DNA from: Methanotrichaceae archaeon
Lineage (GTDB): Archaea > Halobacteriota > Methanosarcinia > Methanotrichales > Methanotrichaceae
Direction of reading: 5' to 3'
Assembly: GCA_963754945.1 (NCBI GenBank)
Contig: CAVWIG010000045.1
Coordinates: 1 to 42,425 of the forward strand
Length of the DNA: 42,425 nt
Shown: positions 2,863 through 13,506 of the stretch, in pieces
How the letters are laid out: each line of letters starts with the position of its first letter
How positions within the stretch are numbered: the stretch's first letter is position 1
Notes under the pieces: model-generated
What the model was told of the DNA's origin: nothing
Seen by the model: only the letters and a program-made list of their open reading frames with translations
Database searches by the model: none
Made by a program: the position numbers and the translations under genes

Positions 2863-5280
2863 ATGGTAAAAACCGAGGGCAGTTTTGCTGTTGAGGACAT
2901 GAAGAACGTCCAGATCAACATCGGAGCTGTCGTTAAGGAAGAGGAAGAGTGGGACCAACCCATGGGACCCTTCCCCAAGCCCGGCGTAGCTACTCTCCGG
3001 GACTGGGACTACAAGATAATGAACCGATACAAGATCATGTACGCCCCTGCCGACGACACTTGCACCCTGTGCACATACGGACCGTGCGACCTCACAGGAA
3101 ACATAAAGGGCGCTTGCGGCATTAATATGGAAGGCTACTCCGGCAAGATAGTCCTCATCGCTGTTTTGATGGGATGCTGCGCGCATGCTGCTCACGGCAG
3201 GCACCTTTACCACTGGTGTCTCGATAAATTCGGCGATATGAAGTTCGACATGGGCGACGAGATCCTGGTAGATTCGCCTTTATACCAGACCATCATGGGC
3301 AAGAAGCCCACTTCGCTCAAGGATTTCGACGAAGGCCTGCGCTACCTTGAGGAAGAAGTAGTCCAGCTCGTGGCTGCTACTCATACCGGCCAAGAGGCTT
3401 ACTACAAGGATTTCGAATCCAAAGCTCTGCATGCCGGCATGATGGATGACCTGGGCATGGAGATCTGCGATCTGCTTCAGATGGTGGCTTACGACATGCC
3501 CCGTGGTGCCGTTGATGCTCCGCTCGTCGAGATTGGCATGGGTACCCTGGATCAGAACAAGGGCGTTTTGATTGCTTACGGCCACAACCTGGCAGCAGGC
3601 GCAGAGGCCATGATATACACAGAGAACAACAACCTCTGGGATAAGGTGGATATCGGCGGTGTGTGCTGCACGGCCATAGACCTCACAAGGATCACCGAGA
3701 CTGGCAGAGAGAGCAAGATACCCAAGAATCTGGGTCCTAAGGCCAAAGTTGCCGGTGCAATGGGCTGGTGGAGGAAGATGGTCCGCTCTGGAGTCATGGA
3801 TTGCATCATGATAGATGAGCAGTGTGTCTTCTGTGACGTCCTAGAAGACTCCCAGAAGCGCAAGATCCCGGTCATAGCCACCACAGACAAGATAATGCTC
3901 GGACTGCCGGATAGAACCAATGATCCAGTCGATGCCATAGTGGACGACCTAGTAAACTTCAGGATGCCCGGAGTTGCCATCCTCGATCCCACTAAGGCGG
4001 GAGAGGTCGGAATCAGGGTCGCCATAGCCGTCAAGCCCAAGCGCGCTGAGGCCAAGGCACAGAGCCTGATCACAGAAGCGCAGTTTAAGGAGTACATAGA
4101 GAAGTGTACAGGGTGCAACGAGTGTGCCTTCGTCTGTCCGCCCCACACAACCATAAGCGAGCTGATTGCTGAGGCAAAGAAGGGCAACCTGGAACCGTTC
4201 TCCGCACTCTACGAGACCTGCGTCGGGTGCAACAGATGCGAGCAGGTATGCCCGCAGAACATCCCCATCATGGACCTCTACGAGTACGCTAACCGCCAAT
4301 ACGTCAAGAATCAGAAGTTCAAGATGAGAGCAGGACGCGGTCCTGCCAGAGATACGGAGATCAGGGCAGTAGGCGCACCCATAGTGCTCGGAACCATTCC
4401 AGGTGTCATCGCTCTGGTAGGATGCTCTAACTACCCGAATGGCACCAAGGAAGCCTACGACATGGCCAAGGAGTTCGTGGATAGAGGCTACATAGTTGTC
4501 ACCTCCGGATGCATGGCCATGGACATGTCCCTCTACACCGATCAGGACGGCAAGACCATCTGGGAGCAGTATCCCGGAGGTTTCGACGGTAGGAACATCT
4601 GCAACACAGGGTCTTGTGTAGCCAACGCCAACATCATGGGGGCGGCGATAAAAGTGGCTACGATATTCGCTCACAGGAACCACAGGGGCAACTTCGACGA
4701 TATCGCAGACTATATCTTGAACAAGGTAGGCGCTTGCGGTGTGGCCTGGGGGGCTTACTCTCAAAAGGCCGCGTCGATCGCGACGGGCTGCAACAGATTA
4801 GGAATACCGGTAGTAGTTCAGCCCCACTCCGTCATGTATCGCCGCTCATTCATGGGCAGGGCGGACAAGCCAGAGGACTGGATGGTCATCGATGCTCGTG
4901 ATGGAAGCAAGCAGCAGATAGAGCCAGCGCCAGAGGCGATGCTCTATATAGCCGAGACCAAGGAAGAAGCCATGGTAGAGATGGCCAAGCTCTGCCTGCG
5001 ACCATCGGATAACAGCATTGGCAGAGCGATCAAGCTGACCCACTACTGCGACTTATCCATGAAGTATATGGGCAAGCTGCCAGACGACTGGCACATCTTC
5101 GTCCGAGACACCAAAGATCTTCCCCTCGTCTACAAAGAAACGATGATGAAAGAGCTCGAGGAGAAGCACGGCTGGAAGATCGACTGGAAGGCTAAGAAGT
5201 TCATTTCAGGTCCGCTCAGGCCGGCAGATGTGAGCTTCGATCCGACGAACATCCCCAGGAAGATAAGGGTCAAGAAGTGA
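2863..5280 (+). CDS. cdhA: ACDS complex alpha subunit (Ni-CO dehydrogenase)
   Basis: CTLCTYGPC, GHN, GVCCTA, DEQC, two ferredoxin motifs (CTGCNEC..VCP, CVGCNRCEQVCP), GCSN, GCMA, GSCV; 805 aa. Confidence 0.98.
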   Translation: MVKTEGSFAVEDMKNVQINIGAVVKEEEEWDQPMGPFPKPGVATLRDWDYKIMNRYKIMYAPADDTCTLCTYGPCDLTGNIKGACGINMEGYSGKIVLIAVLMGCCAHAAHGRHLYHWCLDKFGDMKFDMGDEILVDSPLYQTIMGKKPTSLKDFDEGLRYLEEEVVQLVAATHTGQEAYYKDFESKALHAGMMDDLGMEICDLLQMVAYDMPRGAVDAPLVEIGMGTLDQNKGVLIAYGHNLAAGAEAMIYTENNNLWDKVDIGGVCCTAIDLTRITETGRESKIPKNLGPKAKVAGAMGWWRKMVRSGVMDCIMIDEQCVFCDVLEDSQKRKIPVIATTDKIMLGLPDRTNDPVDAIVDDLVNFRMPGVAILDPTKAGEVGIRVAIAVKPKRAEAKAQSLITEAQFKEYIEKCTGCNECAFVCPPHTTISELIAEAKKGNLEPFSALYETCVGCNRCEQVCPQNIPIMDLYEYANRQYVKNQKFKMRAGRGPARDTEIRAVGAPIVLGTIPGVIALVGCSNYPNGTKEAYDMAKEFVDRGYIVVTSGCMAMDMSLYTDQDGKTIWEQYPGGFDGRNICNTGSCVANANIMGAAIKVATIFAHRNHRGNFDDIADYILNKVGACGVAWGAYSQKAASIATGCNRLGIPVVVQPHSVMYRRSFMGRADKPEDWMVIDARDGSKQQIEPAPEAMLYIAETKEEAMVEMAKLCLRPSDNSIGRAIKLTHYCDLSMKYMGKLPDDWHIFVRDTKDLPLVYKETMMKELEEKHGWKIDWKAKKFISGPLRPADVSFDPTNIPRKIRVKK

Positions 5281-5298: not shown

Positions 5299-5871
5299 AT
5301 GGCAGCAGAAGTAAAACCCAAGGCTGTTGGTATTGACACCACCAGGGACCCAACACCTTTTGAGATGGCCCAGATTCCTGGGCCGGAGATGGCCAAGACT
5401 TACATGCCTAAGGTCATCGCCGCTATAATCAAGAAGTCCAAGAGGCCTCTGCTCGTGGTTGGAGCAGAGCTCTTCGATGACCCAGTGATGTTCGACAAGA
5501 TGATCGAGATCGGCAAGACCGGAATACCAATTGCGGCCACTGCCCACTCGGTCAAGGGCTTTGTAGATAGGAACTACATGAACAATGTCTATCAGATCGG
5601 CCTGCACCCCCTGACCAACTACCTCCGCTTCGAGGACTGGAAGGGCCTGGACGGACAGGGCCAGTATGATACCGTTATATTCATGGGCATCTTCTACAAG
5701 TTCGCTAACGCCATGTTTTCAACCCTGAAACACTTCAACCGAAACATCAAGCGTGTCTCGATCGACAGGTACTACCATGTCAATGCGAACATGACCTTCG
5801 GGAACATGGCCTTCAGAACCGACGACTACCACGCAGCCGTGGACGAAGTTATAGCAGCAATGAAGAAATAA
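5299..5871 (+). CDS. cdhB: ACDS complex epsilon subunit
   Basis: SKRPLLVVG, W.GLDG.GQYD, IDRYYH.NA..TFGN motifs; position after cdhA. Confidence 0.96.
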   Translation: MAAEVKPKAVGIDTTRDPTPFEMAQIPGPEMAKTYMPKVIAAIIKKSKRPLLVVGAELFDDPVMFDKMIEIGKTGIPIAATAHSVKGFVDRNYMNNVYQIGLHPLTNYLRFEDWKGLDGQGQYDTVIFMGIFYKFANAMFSTLKHFNRNIKRVSIDRYYHVNANMTFGNMAFRTDDYHAAVDEVIAAMKK

Positions 5872-5900: not shown

Positions 5901-7307
5901 ATGGCAGATGAAATCAAGTTGGACATATCCCCAATGTATGAAGGGGAACGCATCAGGAAAGAGGATCTATGGGTAGAGCTCGCCGGCCCCAAGGCTTACG
6001 GGTTCGAGCTTTCCCTAGCAACACCGATGGATCAGATCCAGGACGGAAAGGTGACCGTAGTCGGCCCTGACCTCAAGGACATCAAAGAGGGTTCAACCAT
6101 TCCCTTCGGCATGATCTTCAAGGTCGGCGGCGAGAAGATCGAGAAGGATCTGGAGTCCATCATCGAGAGGAGGAACCATGCTCTGCTCTCCTACATCAGC
6201 GGTCTCATGCACCTCAACCAGAGGTACGACATCTGGATGAGGCTGGGCAAGAGCCTGCAGAAGAAGGGCGTTACCTCCTTTGTGCAGATTTACAAGCCGG
6301 TCATCGACCTGTACAAGGCCGAGATGCCCTTCATCGAGAAGATGGAGATCACCATCGTAACCGATCCCGAGAAGGTAAAGGAAGAGAAGGCTAAGGCTAT
6401 GGCGGTCTACGAGGCTCGTGACGCGCGCGCCAAGGGACTGCACGATGAGGACGTCGATGTCTTCTACGGCTGCACCCTGTGTCAGGCCTTCGCCCCGACC
6501 AGCGCCTGTGTAGTCACCCCTGATCGGCCATCCCTGTGCGGCGCTATCACCTGGTTCGACGGCCGCGCTGCTGCCAAGGTGGACCCAGAGGGGCCCCAGT
6601 TCCCCATACCAAAGACGGGACTAAAGGATGCAGTTGCCGGTGAGTACGATACCATCAACGAGATGGCAGCGAAGAGGTCCGGCGGCGAGTACAGCGTCAT
6701 GAAGCTTTACACGTTCTTCGATGCACCCCATACCTCGTGCGGCTGCTTCGAAACCATCGGATTCTACATGCCAGAGGTTGACGGAATCGGCCTTGCTGAC
6801 CGTGACTTCAAGGGCGCAACCCCCAACGGACTGCCCTTCTCCACAATGGCCGGCCAGACCGGAGGCGGCAAGCAGGTCGTAGGATTCCTGGGCATGGGTA
6901 TCCTGTACTACTTCTCCTCCAAGTTCCTCCAGGCAGATGGAGGCTGGAGAAGGATTGTCTGGATGTCCAGCAAGCTCAAGGAGAGGGTAAAGGCAGGCAT
7001 CGCCGAGGATATGCTCGCCAAGATCGCCACCGAGAACGATGCCAAGGATATCCCATCCCTGAAGGCTTTCCTGGTCAAAGTCGGGCACCCCGTAGTAGAT
7101 GGCGTCACCAGGACCGTTGATAACAAGAAGATCACTGAGGGCTGGAAGTTCGAAGAGGTCGGCGACGATGAGAAACAGAAGCTCATCGGCTTCATCGAGC
7201 AGACAGGCGGAGAGTTCACCCTCGACGATGTCCACAGCAAGCTCGGCTGGTCTGAGACTCAGCTCAACCAGGTTGTAGAGGTCCTGCAGAACGAGGGAGT
7301 TATTTAA
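5901..7307 (+). CDS. cdhC: ACDS complex beta subunit (acetyl-CoA synthase)
   Basis: YEGERIRK, FYGCTLCQAFAP, R..LCGAI, PHTSCGCFE A-cluster motifs. Confidence 0.98.
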   Translation: MADEIKLDISPMYEGERIRKEDLWVELAGPKAYGFELSLATPMDQIQDGKVTVVGPDLKDIKEGSTIPFGMIFKVGGEKIEKDLESIIERRNHALLSYISGLMHLNQRYDIWMRLGKSLQKKGVTSFVQIYKPVIDLYKAEMPFIEKMEITIVTDPEKVKEEKAKAMAVYEARDARAKGLHDEDVDVFYGCTLCQAFAPTSACVVTPDRPSLCGAITWFDGRAAAKVDPEGPQFPIPKTGLKDAVAGEYDTINEMAAKRSGGEYSVMKLYTFFDAPHTSCGCFETIGFYMPEVDGIGLADRDFKGATPNGLPFSTMAGQTGGGKQVVGFLGMGILYYFSSKFLQADGGWRRIVWMSSKLKERVKAGIAEDMLAKIATENDAKDIPSLKAFLVKVGHPVVDGVTRTVDNKKITEGWKFEEVGDDEKQKLIGFIEQTGGEFTLDDVHSKLGWSETQLNQVVEVLQNEGVI

Positions 7308-7320
7308 GGAGGTTACGAAA

Positions 7321-7503
7321 ATGGCGGGAAAGATTCAGCTTAAACTTAAGCCCAAGGCACCTGCGGCAGCGGCTCCAGCAGCCGCACCCGCAGCAGGCGC
7401 AGCACCAGCCTTTTCCATGCCAGCCGGCGGCAGCGCTGGCGGCATAAAGCTGGTACTGAAAGATGCAAAGATAACCATCGACAAGGTGGTTCTCGCTAAG
7501 TAG
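7321..7503 (+). CDS. 60-aa Ala/Pro-rich protein resembling a detached CdhC C-terminal tail (copy 1)
   Basis: GGAGG SD, ATG start, operon-like codon usage; C-terminus GGIKLVLKDAKITIDKVVLAK. Confidence 0.85.
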   Translation: MAGKIQLKLKPKAPAAAAPAAAPAAGAAPAFSMPAGGSAGGIKLVLKDAKITIDKVVLAK

Positions 7504-7504
7504 A

Positions 7505-7546
7505 GACCGCCTTCTTCTCCCTTTTTCCTGTTTGGGAGAGGCGGTC
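7505..7546 (+). terminator. Intra-operon stem-loop with a pyrimidine-rich loop (terminator or stabiliser candidate)
   Basis: GACCGCC..TCTCCC / GGGAGA-GGCGGTC arms around CTTTTTCCTGTTT. Confidence 0.55.
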
Positions 7547-7588
7547 GCTGGCGAAGGATCCGATCTTAGTTCAAGTGAGGGAGATATT

Positions 7589-7771
7589 ATGGCAGGAAAG
7601 ATTCAGCTCAAGCTTAAGCCCAAGGCACCTGCGGCAGCGGCTCCAGCAGCCGCACCCGCGAGCGGCGCAGCAGCACCAATGTTTGCTCCAGCAGCGTCTT
7701 CCGGCGGCCTGGTCATTGAGCTTCGGGGAGCGTCCGTCCACGTGGCGGAAGTCATTATCAAGAAGAAATAG
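7589..7771 (+). CDS. 60-aa Ala/Pro-rich protein, paralog of 7321-7503 (copy 2)
   Basis: ATG at 7589 after GAGGGAG; MAGKIQLKLKPKAPAAAAPAAAPA...SSGGLVIELRGASVHVAEVIIKKK. Confidence 0.85.
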   Translation: MAGKIQLKLKPKAPAAAAPAAAPASGAAAPMFAPAASSGGLVIELRGASVHVAEVIIKKK

Positions 7772-7783
7772 GGAAGGCTAACC

Positions 7784-8545
7784 TTGGGAAAAGTAATAGC
7801 GGTAACCGGCAAGGGCGGCACGGGCAAGACCGCCGTCACCGCCATGCTGATCAGACACCTATTGAAGGTCTCGGCCAGAAAGTACAGGATACTCGCTATC
7901 GACGCAGATCCGGATGCAAATCTCGCAGATGCTTTGGGCGTAACTGTAGGAAAGACCATAGGAGACATGCGAGAGTTCATGCAGCAGTCCAGGTACACCA
8001 CGTCTCCAGACACAGATAAACATGCGCTGTTCGAGTCAAAGCTCTTCGAGATCCTGGCCGAGGAGGAAGGATATGATCTCCTTGTCATGGGCAAGCCGGA
8101 AGGGTCTGGATGCTACTGTTTTGTCAACAACCTTCTTCGTGGCCTCATGGACAAGACTGTTAGCGATTACGATCTGACCATCATAGACACTCCGGCTGGC
8201 CTTGAGCACCTCAGCAGAAAGACCATACCCGATCTGGACATCCTCGTTGTTGTCACGGACGAATCCAGACGCGGTCTGACCACTGCCGAGCGCATACGCG
8301 ACCTGGCAGGAGAGATCGAGCTCCGGTACAAGGAGCTGTACGTGGTCGTCAACAAGGTCACCCCAGAGCGAAAGCAGAAGGTGCTGGAGAACGCCAGAGG
8401 TGTCGGCCTTAAGGTTATCGGTACTATTCCATATGATGAGTTGTTAGCCAAGTTCGACTTAGTGGGAGATCCATTGATAGGCCTTCCCGATGACACGCCC
8501 GCTGTTGTTGAGATGAAAGGCGTGGTCAAAGAGATAGGCCTGTGA
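7784..8545 (+). CDS. cooC: CooC/AcsF-type nickel-insertion ATPase
   Basis: GKGGTGKT deviant Walker A, DADPD, GCYC, D..AGLEHLSR; TTG start. Confidence 0.95.
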   Translation: MGKVIAVTGKGGTGKTAVTAMLIRHLLKVSARKYRILAIDADPDANLADALGVTVGKTIGDMREFMQQSRYTTSPDTDKHALFESKLFEILAEEEGYDLLVMGKPEGSGCYCFVNNLLRGLMDKTVSDYDLTIIDTPAGLEHLSRKTIPDLDILVVVTDESRRGLTTAERIRDLAGEIELRYKELYVVVNKVTPERKQKVLENARGVGLKVIGTIPYDELLAKFDLVGDPLIGLPDDTPAVVEMKGVVKEIGL

Positions 8546-8556
8546 GGGTGATTTGA

Positions 8557-9909
8557 ATGGCAGAGAAGATCACATTGACCGATCTAAACAAGACATTATC
8601 AGAGATGAATGTTCAATCCCTCGAAGGGGTAAAGATCGAGGGAGATGTAGAGATAGAGATCGATGCAGGTGCAGGAGGGGTTGGACCTCTCTTCGCGTAC
8701 TACTTCGGTCAGGAGGCTGCCCAGATAGCAATGCAGCTTATCAAGTTCGCCAAGGCAGTCGGCTATCCGGTTGACGCCCTGATGCAGCCAATAGCACTCG
8801 CCCAGGCCATAGCCCCGGCACCAAAGGAGCTAGCCGCAGCAGCAGCCGCAGTGCCAGCCTTCAAGATTGCCAGCACCATGGCCAGCGCCAAATTCACTGT
8901 GGGCACTGACAAGACCTGGAGGTTGCCAATCCAAGAGGTCACCATCGGTGCAACAAAGGCTGATGGCGGAAGCAGAGGCCATGTTGTGAAGCTCGGTGGA
9001 GAGAAGGCAATGCCGTTCTTCCCCGATGCACCCATGCCCCACAACCCGAAGATCACCATGGACGTCTTCGACATGCCAATAGGCATGGCAAAGGCAGTCA
9101 AGATGCACTACGAGGACGTTATCAACAGTCCCGGCGAGTGGGCCAAGAAGGCTGTCAAGCAGTTCGGCGCAGATCTTGTCACAGTCCACTTGATCAGCAC
9201 TGATCCGCTCCTGAAGGATACCAAGCCCCAGGATGCAGTCAAGACTGTTGAGGAAGTCTTGCAGGCCGTCGATGTGCCAATCTGTATCGGTGGATCCGGC
9301 AACCCGGAGAAAGACCCCATTGTCCTATCCAAGGCAGCCGAAGCAGCTCAGGGAGAGCGCGTTCTGATCGCCTCAGCCAACCTGAACATGGATTGGGAGA
9401 AGATAGGCAAGGCCTGCGTTGACAACGGACACGTCTGTCTGGCCTGGACTCAGCTCGAGATCAACTCTCAGAAGGAGCTGAACAGGAAGCTAATGAAGGT
9501 AGCAGGTGTTCCACGCGAGTCCATAGTCATGGACCCAACAACCGCCGCTCTCGCGTACGGCCTGGATTTCGCCTACTCCAACATGGAGAGGATACGCCTT
9601 GGCGCTCTGAAGGGCGACGAGGAGCTGACCTTCCCGATGTCCTCCGGTACCACAAACGCCTGGGGAGTCAGAGAGGCATGGATGGTAAGGTCCCCCAACA
9701 AGGACGATTCCGATTGGGGAGACAGGATGCTCAGGGGCCCGATCTGGGAGATTCTCACAGGATTCACCCTTGCCATGGCTGGTGTGGACATATTCATGAT
9801 GATGCACCCGCAGGCCGTTGCCTACGTGCATGAGATAACCCAGTCCCTGATGGGACTCATCGAGGCCAAGACTCCGGACACGGCTAGCTGGCTCAAGATG
9901 GAGGTTTGA
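8557..9909 (+). CDS. cdhD: ACDS complex delta subunit (corrinoid Fe-S protein small subunit)
   Basis: [41 protein letters not shown] motifs. Confidence 0.97.
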
Positions 9910-9914
9910 GATCC

Positions 9915-11327
9915 ATGAAAGAAAGTAGCCCGCTTAACCTTTACAAGCAGCTTCCCCAGACCAACTGCAAGAAATGTGGTGAGGAGACCTGTATGGCCTT
10001 TGCCGCAGGCCTTATCGCCAGGACCAGGAAGGTAGAGGAGTGCACGCCACTCATCGATGAGAAGAAGTATGCTAAGAAGCTAGAGACCCTCAAGTCCATC
10101 GTGGCCCCCGAACTGGCTATGGTCTTGATAGGCGCAGGCGAAAAGCAGGTCAAGGTCGGAGGCGAGGATGTAATGTACCGCCACCAGATGACCTTCTTCA
10201 ACAAGGCGCCCTTCGCCTACGACGTGGCTGACAACATGGATGAGGCAAAGCTCGTCGAGCGCGTCAAGAAGATCTCCACCTGGAGGAAATTCTACATCGG
10301 CAAGTGGGAGCGCGTGGAGATGATCGCTGTCCGGTCAGTCACAGACGACCCGGCTAAGTTCGCTGCATGCGTCAAGAAGGTCATGGAGACCTCGGACTAT
10401 CCGCTGATTCTCTGCTCCTTCAACCCCAAGGTCCTGCGCGCAGGATTAGAGGTTGCCGCCAAGAGCAGGCCGTTGATCTACGCCGCCACCAAGGACAACT
10501 GGCAAGAAGTAGCAAAGCTGGCTGACGAGTTCAAGGTGCCAGTAACCCTGTCCGTTCCCTTCGACCTGGACGGCCTCAAGTCCATGGCTGCCACCTTCGC
10601 AGGCATGGGCCTAAAGGACCTGATCCTTGACCCGGGAACAGCACCCAACGGCAAGAAGCTCCAGGAGACTCTGCTGAACTTCATCAAGCTCAGAAGGGCG
10701 GCAGTCGAGGAGGCTCAGAGGGATATTGCCTATCCAGTCATGGCATTGCCCATCAACGCCTGGCTGACCAGTCAGGACCCAGCACGTGCAGCCTACTGGG
10801 AGTCGGTGCTCACCGGCGCCTTCGTCATTCGCGGTGGAGCCATAATGATCAAGCACTCCATCGAGGCCTACAGCATGATGCCGGACATGCATCTTCGGTT
10901 CAACATCTACACCGACCCGAGGAAACCTGTCCAGGTCAAGCCAGGACTCTACAAGGTCGGCACCCCGGGACCGGAGTCGCCCATCATCGTGACCACGAAT
11001 TTCGCCCTGACTTACTACACAGTCGAGTCTGACGTCGCCTCAAACAACATAAACGCCTACATCCTGTCCGTCAACACCGATGGTATCGGCGTGCAGGCAT
11101 CTGTTGCCGGCGGCCAGCTCAACCCGACTAAGATCAAGGAATCCATGGACGAGACTGGTTTCGATTGGAAGGGCCAGAAGTACCCCGCACTGATGCTGCC
11201 AGGAATGGCTGCCAAGTTCAGCGGCGAGCTTGAGGACCTCTTTGCAGGCAAGGCCAAGATCATGGTCGGCCCAGAGGACTCGGGACGCATCGTCGGCTGG
11301 ATGAAGGATTACTGGCCGCCAAAGTAA
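9915..11327 (+). CDS. cdhE: ACDS complex gamma subunit (corrinoid Fe-S protein large subunit)
   Basis: LPQTNCKKCGEETCMAFA...C Fe-S domain, NIYTDPRKP, TTNFALTYYTVESD, VGPEDS. ATG at 9915. Confidence 0.97.
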   Translation: MKESSPLNLYKQLPQTNCKKCGEETCMAFAAGLIARTRKVEECTPLIDEKKYAKKLETLKSIVAPELAMVLIGAGEKQVKVGGEDVMYRHQMTFFNKAPFAYDVADNMDEAKLVERVKKISTWRKFYIGKWERVEMIAVRSVTDDPAKFAACVKKVMETSDYPLILCSFNPKVLRAGLEVAAKSRPLIYAATKDNWQEVAKLADEFKVPVTLSVPFDLDGLKSMAATFAGMGLKDLILDPGTAPNGKKLQETLLNFIKLRRAAVEEAQRDIAYPVMALPINAWLTSQDPARAAYWESVLTGAFVIRGGAIMIKHSIEAYSMMPDMHLRFNIYTDPRKPVQVKPGLYKVGTPGPESPIIVTTNFALTYYTVESDVASNNINAYILSVNTDGIGVQASVAGGQLNPTKIKESMDETGFDWKGQKYPALMLPGMAAKFSGELEDLFAGKAKIMVGPEDSGRIVGWMKDYWPPK

Positions 11328-12157: not shown

Positions 12158-12757
12158 CTAAAGATCACCTTGCATTATCGATTCGCAGAGCTTGAGATCC
12201 TCGACAACATTCACGTTGACAGCCAGCTCGATCCTCTCCATGATCAGATGGTAGTCTTCCTGCTCCTCCCTAATATTTGCTCCGTCCAAGATATTTATGC
12301 CCGATGGAACAATAAGCTGGCTACGGTAGTTGAACAGCGAATCCGGCCTACGTCCAAGGCGACGATGCAGATCGAGCGGAGTGTGAGTGGACAAAGCCGG
12401 TTCGGGGCGCTTTTCGTACGTCTCCATGATCTCGTCTATCAGGTCCGGAGTTACCAGGGGCAGATCGGCCATTACTATCAGGATGGGCTCTGCCACTCCG
12501 GCCATCTCCACGGCTTCAACCATGTCCGTCACGAATCCCTTACCCTTCGTGTCAACGACACCCAATTCCCTCTCCAACGCCCATTTTCTGGTCATAGGCA
12601 CATTTTCAGTGGCTGCCACGAATATCCTATACGCCGAGCTGTCCAGCAGTGCGGACACGACGTAGTCTATAAGCGGCCTGCCGAACAGCTTGACAAGGGG
12701 CTTCTCGCCCATCCTAAGGCGGGAGCCCTTCCCACCAGCCATCACCAGTGCATCCAA
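12158..12757 (-). CDS. cobY: Adenosylcobinamide-phosphate guanylyltransferase
   Basis: MAGGKGSRL..GEKPL, ADLP, NVN..EDL motifs. TTG start at 12757 (MDALVMAGG) overlaps the cobS end. Confidence 0.92.
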   Translation of the reverse strand: MDALVMAGGKGSRLRMGEKPLVKLFGRPLIDYVVSALLDSSAYRIFVAATENVPMTRKWALERELGVVDTKGKGFVTDMVEAVEMAGVAEPILIVMADLPLVTPDLIDEIMETYEKRPEPALSTHTPLDLHRRLGRRPDSLFNYRSQLIVPSGINILDGANIREEQEDYHLIMERIELAVNVNVVEDLKLCESIMQGDL

Positions 12758-13506
12758 GGAAGTACACCCCCCAAAGTCAACGCCGCAGCCAGTGCAATGG
12801 CGCGACAAATCTCATTTGTGGCACCTATCCCGTCTCCGGTGGCTCCGCCGAAGTTCCTCTTTGCAACGATCACGAGATAGAGGGCGACCAATTGTGAAGC
12901 AGCCAGCATGATCAGTCCAAGGGTGCCGAGAGCAACGTAACTTGCGGCTACAGAGATGGCCAGGGCGATCAAGAACTCTCTATGGCCGGTCCTATCGATC
13001 ATTATCTGTCCGAACCCCTTGTGCAGTGATTTGGAGAATGCCGCGAAGGCGATCATCGACTGTTTGGCCGAAACCTCGGCAACCAGAAGTGCAAGAGGCA
13101 GGAGGAGAGCTGGCATAGAGTTGATGATGGCATAGTTTGCTATCAGGATCATGACTATGAAAGCCGCGCCGCCTGTCCCCAAGCTTACGTCCTTCATGGC
13201 CGCAACCTTCTTCTCCGGGGATCCGTGGGTCACTATACCGTCCCCGAAGTCGGCCAGACCGTCCAGGTGATTGATCCCGCACAGCTTGTAGATTATGGCC
13301 AAAACCAGGACCGAAGTCAGGGTGGCCGGGAATAATCTGGAAAGGAGGTAGGCCGACCCGCCCATTATTGCCCCCAGGACTATACCAACGAGGGAGAACA
13401 CGTAGACGTGGCTCATTAGGGCCTCCAAGCCTTCCATACTTATGCCAACGGGTATTGTGGACAGAAATCCGAAACCGGACTTGAGAGCAAAACAGAAGTC
13501 CTTCAG
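12742..13506 (-). CDS. cobS: Adenosylcobinamide-GDP ribazoletransferase (cobamide synthase)
   Basis: GINHLDGLADFGDG, MKD...GTGG, FGGATGD.IGA.NE. The N-terminal GFLSTIP motif lies upstream of the first ATG (13437), so a CTG start at 13506 is proposed. Confidence 0.92.
   Translation of the reverse strand: MKDFCFALKSGFGFLSTIPVGISMEGLEALMSHVYVFSLVGIVLGAIMGGSAYLLSRLFPATLTSVLVLAIIYKLCGINHLDGLADFGDGIVTHGSPEKKVAAMKDVSLGTGGAAFIVMILIANYAIINSMPALLLPLALLVAEVSAKQSMIAFAAFSKSLHKGFGQIMIDRTGHREFLIALAISVAASYVALGTLGLIMLAASQLVALYLVIVAKRNFGGATGDGIGATNEICRAIALAAALTLGGVLPWMHW

Follow-up and report, generated by a model that had tools for sequence, protein, structure and literature searches.

The cdh operon of a Methanotrichaceae archaeon raises the question of what two genes of only 60 codons each do in the middle of the gene set for the complex of acetyl-CoA decarbonylase/synthase (ACDS). 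The operon is complete and lies on the + strand of contig CAVWIG010000045.1 (assembly GCA_963754945.1), positions 1 to 42,425 of which were analyzed (42,425 nt; hereafter the window). The two genes, here called orfA (7321-7503, +) and orfB (7589-7771, +), are found between cdhC, which encodes the beta subunit of acetyl-CoA synthase (ACS), and a cooC-like gene. We propose, with a probability of roughly 60%, that their products would be free-standing tether subunits of ACDS, docking on a winged-helix domain at the end of CdhC and joining a hub made of the CdhD and CdhA termini. The product of orfA is accordingly referred to as the A-type detached tail protein and that of orfB as its B-type paralogue. 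Judged by sequence comparison, the finding is real and more general than Methanothrix, with well-supported claims at the gene level and a plausible tether mechanism.

A sequence-only reading of this DNA had described two open reading frames of 60 aa between cdhC and cooC, each with its own Shine-Dalgarno site, and both are indeed present as 60 codons plus a stop codon. The ATG of orfA follows the cdhC stop codon by 13 nt and is preceded, at a distance of 8 nt, by a GGAGG site (7308-7312, +) that overlaps this stop codon. The ATG of orfB at 7589 has a Shine-Dalgarno-like GAGGGAG (7577-7583, +) located 5 nt upstream. Both proteins share a three-part build: the first 12 residues form a basic amphipathic N-terminal strand motif, a low-complexity Ala/Pro(/Met) linker follows in which an aromatic-Met-Pro motif is conserved, and the last 21-22 residues are the end module. 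In orfA these parts are encoded at 7321-7356, 7357-7437 (residues 13-39, with a PAF.MP motif) and 7438-7500; in orfB at 7589-7624, 7625-7702 (residues 13-38) and 7703-7768, the last part being a diverged end module with a Lys tail (all +). Pfam contains no family for either protein, and an Atlas look-up of orfA matched only archaeal clusters. The source genome has a single cdhC and exactly two small tail genes, and a scan of this genome for the N-terminal motif retrieved no protein besides orfA and orfB.

The small genes are not peculiar to the window. A match at E<=1 was found in 40 out of 41 relatives including the source genome, and in 24/24 genomes of the same family. All 24 Methanotrichaceae loci yielded an A-type gene and 21 of them a B-type gene, at a constant position in the operon. 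Where no B type was read, the locus is masked (L004), cut by a contig end (L012) or part of a second, shorter operon (L018). Purifying selection acts on both end modules: pN/pS (nonsynonymous over synonymous differences, as uncorrected proportions summed over all pairs, which are not independent) amounts to 0.18 in the A module, based on 24 sequences, and to 0.25 in the B module, based on 21, next to 0.43 and 0.42 for the N-terminal motif. Metatranscriptome contigs from four peat runs of three studies span the cdhC-orfA, orfA-orfB and orfB-cooC junctions, some of them showing no differences from the window, which fits co-transcription. We conclude that orfA and orfB are real, conserved genes.

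The two halves of the genes have different histories. Residues 1-24 of both proteins are identical and the corresponding 72 coding bases differ at three sites, all synonymous, as the sequence-only reading had noticed; the similarity begins at the ATG and breaks off after codon 24, and the end modules differ from each other, again as described there. Across genera, the end modules group by paralogue, the N-termini by genome. The 5' halves evolve in concert through gene conversion, a common partner, or both, since the mean identity between A and B within one genome (0.78) exceeds that between A genes of different genomes (0.63; 45 nt from the motif, 21 genomes). With these values the near-identical 5' tract looks like the outcome of gene conversion rather than of coding selection, the explanation given by the sequence-only reading; three synonymous differences alone are a weak sign of the latter.

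The origin of orfA is indicated by two CdhC profiles. In NCBIfam NF003379 its match covers positions 419-458 of 464 (E 2e-4), in TIGR00316 positions 427-460 of 460 (E 1.5e-3). The CdhC of the window (5901-7307, +, 468 aa; Pfam CdhC and ACS_CODH_B_C) covers positions 1-415 of NF003379, and the CdhC profiles are matched only up to about position 415-428, so that the Methanosarcina-type tail is missing from this protein, as had been supposed. In other families the matches of the A2 profile fall on CdhC frames of about 450-540 aa, at their C-ends, with E-values down to 6e-13. In the sister family (f3) the orfA match is located at the very end of CdhC frames of 466-492 aa in 12 of 13 genomes, and the tails there comprise an acidic run, an Ala/Pro/Met linker and a clearly orfA-like end module. 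Among named records, the tail is fused to CdhC in Methanolobus, Candidatus Syntrophoarchaeum and Archaeoglobus, and detached in Methanothrix harundinacea and Candidatus Methanocrinis. By these profile matches, orfA shares homology in its linker and end module with the C-terminal extension of Methanosarcina-type CdhC.

This extension is about 70-75 residues long (401-470 in M. acetivorans, 398-472 in M. thermophila) and has in common with orfA the low-complexity Ala/Pro(/Met) linker, the aromatic-Met-Pro motif and a matching terminal module of about 20 residues. The position in the cdh operon is also the same, the small tail genes being found directly 3' of the cdhC core. Unlike the fused extension, the Methanothrix tail is a separate cistron with its own start, is duplicated and has acquired a new basic N-terminal motif, and CdhC itself ends in an acidic winged-helix domain instead of the acidic run of the fused form. 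The gap between the cdhC stop codon and the small gene measures 1-52 nt in 31 loci, where the start is always an ATG, mostly behind a GGAGG-like site; the frame offset to the cdhC stop is 0, +1 or +2 in 12, 14 and 5 loci, respectively, and all three stop codons are used. Covalent continuity with the A3 domain of CdhC is thus absent, given the stop codon, the separate Shine-Dalgarno site and ATG and the variable frame, and orfA is therefore a detached homologue of the extension, not the extension itself.

The CdhC of the window is no simple truncation. Its last 53 residues (7146-7304, +) form a conserved helical domain that is present in every family locus and, with a score below the Pfam cut-off, matches the winged-helix family DUF7343 (E 2.2e-5, profile positions 4-48 of 62). 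Homologues of this end domain (n = 18, E<=0.01) match DUF7343 in 14, a NirDL-like helix-turn-helix family in nine and MarR_2 in seven cases. The beta-hairpin of the wing is missing, since CdhC stops directly past the third helix, at profile position 48 of 62. The domain carries a net charge of -8 in the window and of -5 to -20 over its 53 residues in 21 out of 22 loci, with no basic nucleic-acid-binding surface, which argues against binding of nucleic acids. The best sequence match of the end-domain profile in the PDB is CdvB (2xvc_A, E 6.8e-4, 44 aligned positions). CdvB, like the CdhC end domain, is an archaeal winged helix of small size in which a wing strand is missing, and its broken fold is described as being completed by E3B, a beta-strand peptide of CdvA (PMC5840170). 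There the partner supplies a short terminal beta-strand; such complementation is only proposed for CdhC, the strand is C-terminal in CdvA versus N-terminal in the Methanothrix small proteins, and CdvA and CdvB serve cell division, a cellular system unrelated to ACDS.

We found the split form well outside the family of the window. When a profile built from 31 A and B sequences was searched against 1.84 billion representatives, 26 proteins were retrieved at E<=1e-3. Among them are distant stand-alone proteins built in the same three parts, and the sources named for some of these are Candidatus Methanolliviera, a Methanosarcinales archaeon and a Methanocellales archaeon. Of 401 genomes sampled from the phylum, 153 contain a match to the small-protein profile: small stand-alone frames occur in families f1, f8, f10, f11, f21 and f32, and matches within CdhC frames of about 450-540 aa in f3, f7, f14, f17, f19, f31 and others. 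The end-domain profile (E<=1e-17) recognizes the C-ends of CdhC-like frames in 28 genomes of the same sample (13 in f1, three each in f8, f10 and f21, four in f11 and two in f32), these frames being 342-739 aa long, one of them cut by a contig end. A detached tail gene lies directly downstream in 28 out of 28 genomes with such a strong winged-helix match (27 by coordinates, one by hand), and also in genome G089, where the end-domain match is weaker. In the fused-tail CdhCs read from f3, f7, f17, f31, f32 and f37, a shared hairpin segment leads straight into the acidic run and linker, and a helical domain is absent. A maximum-likelihood tree was built from 38 CdhC cores, leaving out four loci that lack a complete core; on it the split state needs four changes, at least three of them imposed by branches with good support. 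Winged helix and detached tail have thus been kept paired, or paired anew, over several independent contrasts. The view of a free-standing, duplicated and diverged tail, conserved in related cdh operons, has therefore held in the sequence-only reading, which missed the winged-helix end of CdhC and the split in at least five other families. The winged-helix CdhC of G100 (L067, 4835-7051), accompanied by a detached tail gene, is a 739-aa frame whose usual core is preceded by a long N-terminal extension; its place may be in the prismane-fused CdhC clade of a 2026 preprint (PMC13370988).

The charges of the two presumed partners form a pattern. In 21 of 22 loci the CdhC end domain is acidic, and the small protein has a charge of +2 to +6 over its first 16 residues. 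In G089, the 22nd locus, the signs are swapped, with the CdhC end domain at +4 over its last 12 residues and the N-terminus of the small protein at -7, which makes the charges complementary in 22 out of 22 pairs. Of the five genomes of its class, G089 itself is the only one with such a locus, and a metagenome scan found no further charge-swapped loci. A protein search gave one relative, P0165, with a likewise acidic N-terminus and neighboring genes that are not readable. The strict association with a truncated acidic winged helix, along with this charge pattern, points to CdhC as the docking site of the N-terminal strand.

The opposite end of the small proteins leads to the hub of the complex. 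The C-terminal extension of Methanosarcina CdhC, of about 75 residues, is invisible in cryo-EM and is described as having an unknown function in a 2024 cryo-EM paper, where the subcomponents isolated after limited proteolysis include a beta subunit in truncated form (PMC11474084). According to the main text of the 2026 preprint, the N-terminal region of CdhD forms an oligomeric core in Methanosarcina, and the disordered CdhA N-terminus and CdhC C-terminus are proposed to bind this region, thereby tethering ACS; one crosslink connects CdhA E15 to CdhC K452 (PMC13370988). In the window, the N-terminal region of CdhD (8557-8811, +) is composed of an acidic hairpin-like module and a helix whose position corresponds to the coiled-coil hub of that preprint. 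In CdhA, a conserved hairpin-like module and, behind it, an acidic run make up the first 45 or so residues (2863-2997, +); the module is kept in f1, f3 and f8 loci. Both N-terminal modules are conserved in the window and the family, in split and fused systems alike, and the hub is therefore probably the same in Methanothrix. The sequence-only reading had proposed a pairing of the small proteins with a similar beta-strand motif at the CdhD N-terminus. The motif quoted there is present at residues 22-35 of CdhD, and the CdhD module alternates Glu with hydrophobic residues as the N-terminal motif of the small proteins alternates Lys with hydrophobic residues; homology was not detected by hhalign between the small proteins and the CdhD N-terminus (probability 1.3%), so the likeness is limited to the pattern.

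Tether and hub elements are also found in other arrangements. In f21 and f32, the basic, Lys-rich N-terminal strand motif of the small proteins also stands at the head of CdhD (L063, L069, L070, L071, L087), which fits the idea of a putative portable docking peptide. The f21 and f32 genomes with such a motif-headed CdhD also carry a second cdhC elsewhere, with the tail fused. In f8 and f11 an additional gene of 75-82 aa between cooC and cdhD encodes the CdhD N-terminal region as a free-standing copy that includes the acidic hairpin-like module and the helix (L061 4528-4752, L064 8093-8329, L065 7887-8123, L090 3271-3516). Since the motif can head CdhD and the CdhD N-terminal region can stand free, the tether and hub elements of ACDS behave as modules, fused or free.

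Taken together, we propose the following mechanism, in which every binding step is what we infer from sequence. The C-terminal extension of CdhC would have been detached from CdhC and duplicated, giving rise to orfA and orfB as small ACDS subunits. Their basic amphipathic N-terminal strand would dock non-covalently on the CdhC winged helix, perhaps as its missing wing strand, which would parallel the completion of CdvB by E3B of CdvA. The C-terminal end module would plug into the hub of CdhD and CdhA termini. With a common docking end and different hub ends, the two paralogues may address two different hub partners. A Methanosaeta enzyme was purified as two subunits only, versus five-subunit complexes from Methanosarcina (PMC4500148), and this difference would fit a weaker, non-covalent tether. 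A comparable design exists in other multi-enzyme systems. In 2-oxo acid dehydrogenase complexes and biotin enzymes, flexible Ala/Pro-rich swinging-arm linkers join small binding domains to a multi-enzyme core. The likeness of orfA and orfB to these enzymes is one of design only, with no detectable homology and no lipoyl or biotinyl domain; orfA shows a weak match, via its linker, to the profile of the methylmalonyl-CoA decarboxylase gamma subunit (E 0.083).

Several observations weigh against the proposed tether. The DUF7343 score of the CdhC end domain (24.6 bits) stays under the Pfam cut-off of 27.6 bits, and the match to 2xvc, at E 6.8e-4, is weak. The end module of orfB alone matches no CdhC profile, orfB being tied to the tail family via its paralogy with orfA (E 1.7e-13). 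The RNA contigs that bridge the gene junctions could include DNA carry-over, and stretches of low or missing coverage among them are not taken as a sign of absence. The families are related and hence not independent, so that 28 out of 28 overstates the support given by co-occurrence. In addition, genome G052 (L089) fuses core, winged-helix-like domain, charged helical linker and end module in a single frame of 553 aa; since both elements are fused there, the winged helix does not serve solely for docking a detached tail, and this chain is a possible intermediate between the fused and split forms. On one contig of another genome (G009 C8, L073), orfA follows cdhA and cdhB in a locus with no cdhC. 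Finally, the charge swap rests on one genome, G089, whose small protein P0164 comes from a source named Methanonatronarchaeales archaeon. Methanonatronarchaeales are extreme halophiles, in which acidic proteins are common, and the acidic N-terminus of this small protein may thus come from salt adaptation; the basic CdhC end in the same genome is harder to explain in this way.

The alternative that survives best, which we nevertheless regard as unlikely, assigns the small proteins to the hub only: they would cross-link it and set the oligomer size, CdhC would not be tethered and its winged helix would be otherwise employed. The basic ends would then bind the acidic CdhD and CdhA modules, for which both their conservation in split and fused systems alike and the alternation of Lys versus Glu with hydrophobic residues speak, as do the locus with orfA beside cdhAB but no cdhC and the occurrence of a winged helix in the fused form of G052. 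What this explanation leaves unaccounted for is the co-occurrence of the detached form bearing the N-terminal motif with a winged-helix CdhC in 28 out of 28 genomes, as well as the charge swap in G089. The failure of hhalign to relate the small proteins to the CdhD N-terminus also counts against it, though binding needs no homology.

A second alternative, which we consider improbable, is that one paralogue, most likely orfB, caps or regulates assembly by competing with orfA for the docking site, thus tuning how much ACS is held. It draws on the identical N-termini and different end modules within every genome examined and on a stem-loop directly 3' of orfA (7505-7548, +; 5' arm rich in C/T, 3' arm in G/A, loop in T), which could set unequal expression of the two genes. 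Per-sequence folding gives a similar hairpin in many of 21 family loci, with arm sequences that vary between genera. RNAalifold returned no consensus structure for 13 of the 21 orfA-orfB intergenic stretches, the energy of the hairpin in the window is no better than that of shuffled sequences (z -0.37), and a promoter and terminator scan yielded nothing near orfA and orfB that exceeds shuffles. The stem-loop may be an intra-operon terminator or processing site, setting unequal levels of cdhABC-orfA and the downstream genes. A capping role for orfB is at odds with its conservation, at pN/pS 0.25, like that of a structural part, and with the small proteins of f21 and f32, which score nearer to orfB than to orfA (phmmer) and are the sole detached tail gene found in those cdh operons.

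Two further explanations were rejected. That the genes are functionless, decaying remnants of a CdhC tail cut off by domain insertion would suit their location exactly at the expected tail position, their shortness and their low complexity, and is very improbable in view of their conservation in six families and 24/24 family genomes, the purifying selection, the Shine-Dalgarno sites and the conserved new N-terminal motif. Programmed frameshifting or stop-codon read-through, which the gap of just 13 nt might suggest as a means to join orfA to CdhC, is excluded by the variable frame, stop codons and gaps (1-52 nt) of the 31 loci, where ATG starts mostly follow a GGAGG-like site.

The remaining genes of the operon are the expected ones. 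Upstream of cdhC are cdhA (2863-5280, +), encoding the alpha subunit of carbon monoxide dehydrogenase (CODH) with Pfam Prismane and Fer4 matches, and cdhB (5299-5871, +) for the epsilon subunit (Pfam CO_dh, E 1.6e-35). The small genes are followed by the cooC-like gene of a nickel-insertion ATPase (7784-8545, +; Pfam CbiA and ParA-type matches), by cdhD (8557-9909, +; profile matches) for the small subunit of the corrinoid iron-sulfur protein (CoFeSP), and by cdhE (9906-11327, +; Pfam CdhD-family and FeS matches) for its large subunit. Cobalamin biosynthesis genes on the - strand (CobD/CbiB, a class I/II aminotransferase-fold gene and CobS; 371-1486, 1533-2654 and 12742-13437) flank the operon on either side, a sensible neighborhood for a corrinoid-dependent enzyme. 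Open frames on the - strand run over the two small genes (7335-7484, 7571-7741 and 7603-8094) and are most likely a side effect of the GC-rich repeats that code for Ala/Pro. Two family genomes contain a second, shorter cdh cluster with no B type, organized as cdhA-cdhB-cdhC-orfA (L072, G022) or cdhA-cdhB-orfA (L073, G009 C8). Each is then followed by a membrane protein of about 250 aa and a Cys-rich iron-sulfur protein of 458 aa, which presumably resemble HdrE and HdrD of heterodisulfide reductase.

We should note that the small proteins had not been overlooked by annotation, as the sequence-only reading had assumed. Gene callers find both, and 385 proteins of 33-105 aa match orfA at E<=0.01; they are named hypothetical proteins at NCBI (Methanothrix) and CO dehydrogenase/acetyl-CoA synthase beta subunit at JGI, which means that an automatic pipeline had already caught the likeness to the tail. 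None of the papers retrieved in our literature search describes a detached or duplicated tail, a winged-helix end of CdhC or the joint occurrence of these features. The main text of the 2026 preprint contains no occurrence of Methanothrix or Methanosaeta, and its Figure 5 and Extended Data may place the Methanothrix CdhC (PMC13370988).

On a broader and still tentative view, to which we give low confidence, exchangeable adaptors may hold ACDS together in Methanothrix and in several other archaeal lineages: a portable basic strand, heading the small tail proteins and in some lineages CdhD as well, would complete the truncated acidic winged helix of ACS, and the two Methanothrix paralogues would route ACS to the CdhD versus the CdhA termini. 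If this is true, the complex would be assembled, and ACS swapped between CODH and CoFeSP, in a non-covalent and tunable manner.

Methanothrix is a main acetate-consuming methanogen, and ACDS is its central enzyme. Biochemical data on the CdhC extension are lacking according to the 2026 preprint, in the main text of which an ACS clade nested in CdhC is described as having no extension (PMC13370988). In Methanothrix this tail has been naturally cut off, duplicated and given its own docking end, which offers a natural test of what the CdhC extension does. ACS clades that are scored as having no extension may have a detached copy next door, and we suggest that they be re-examined.

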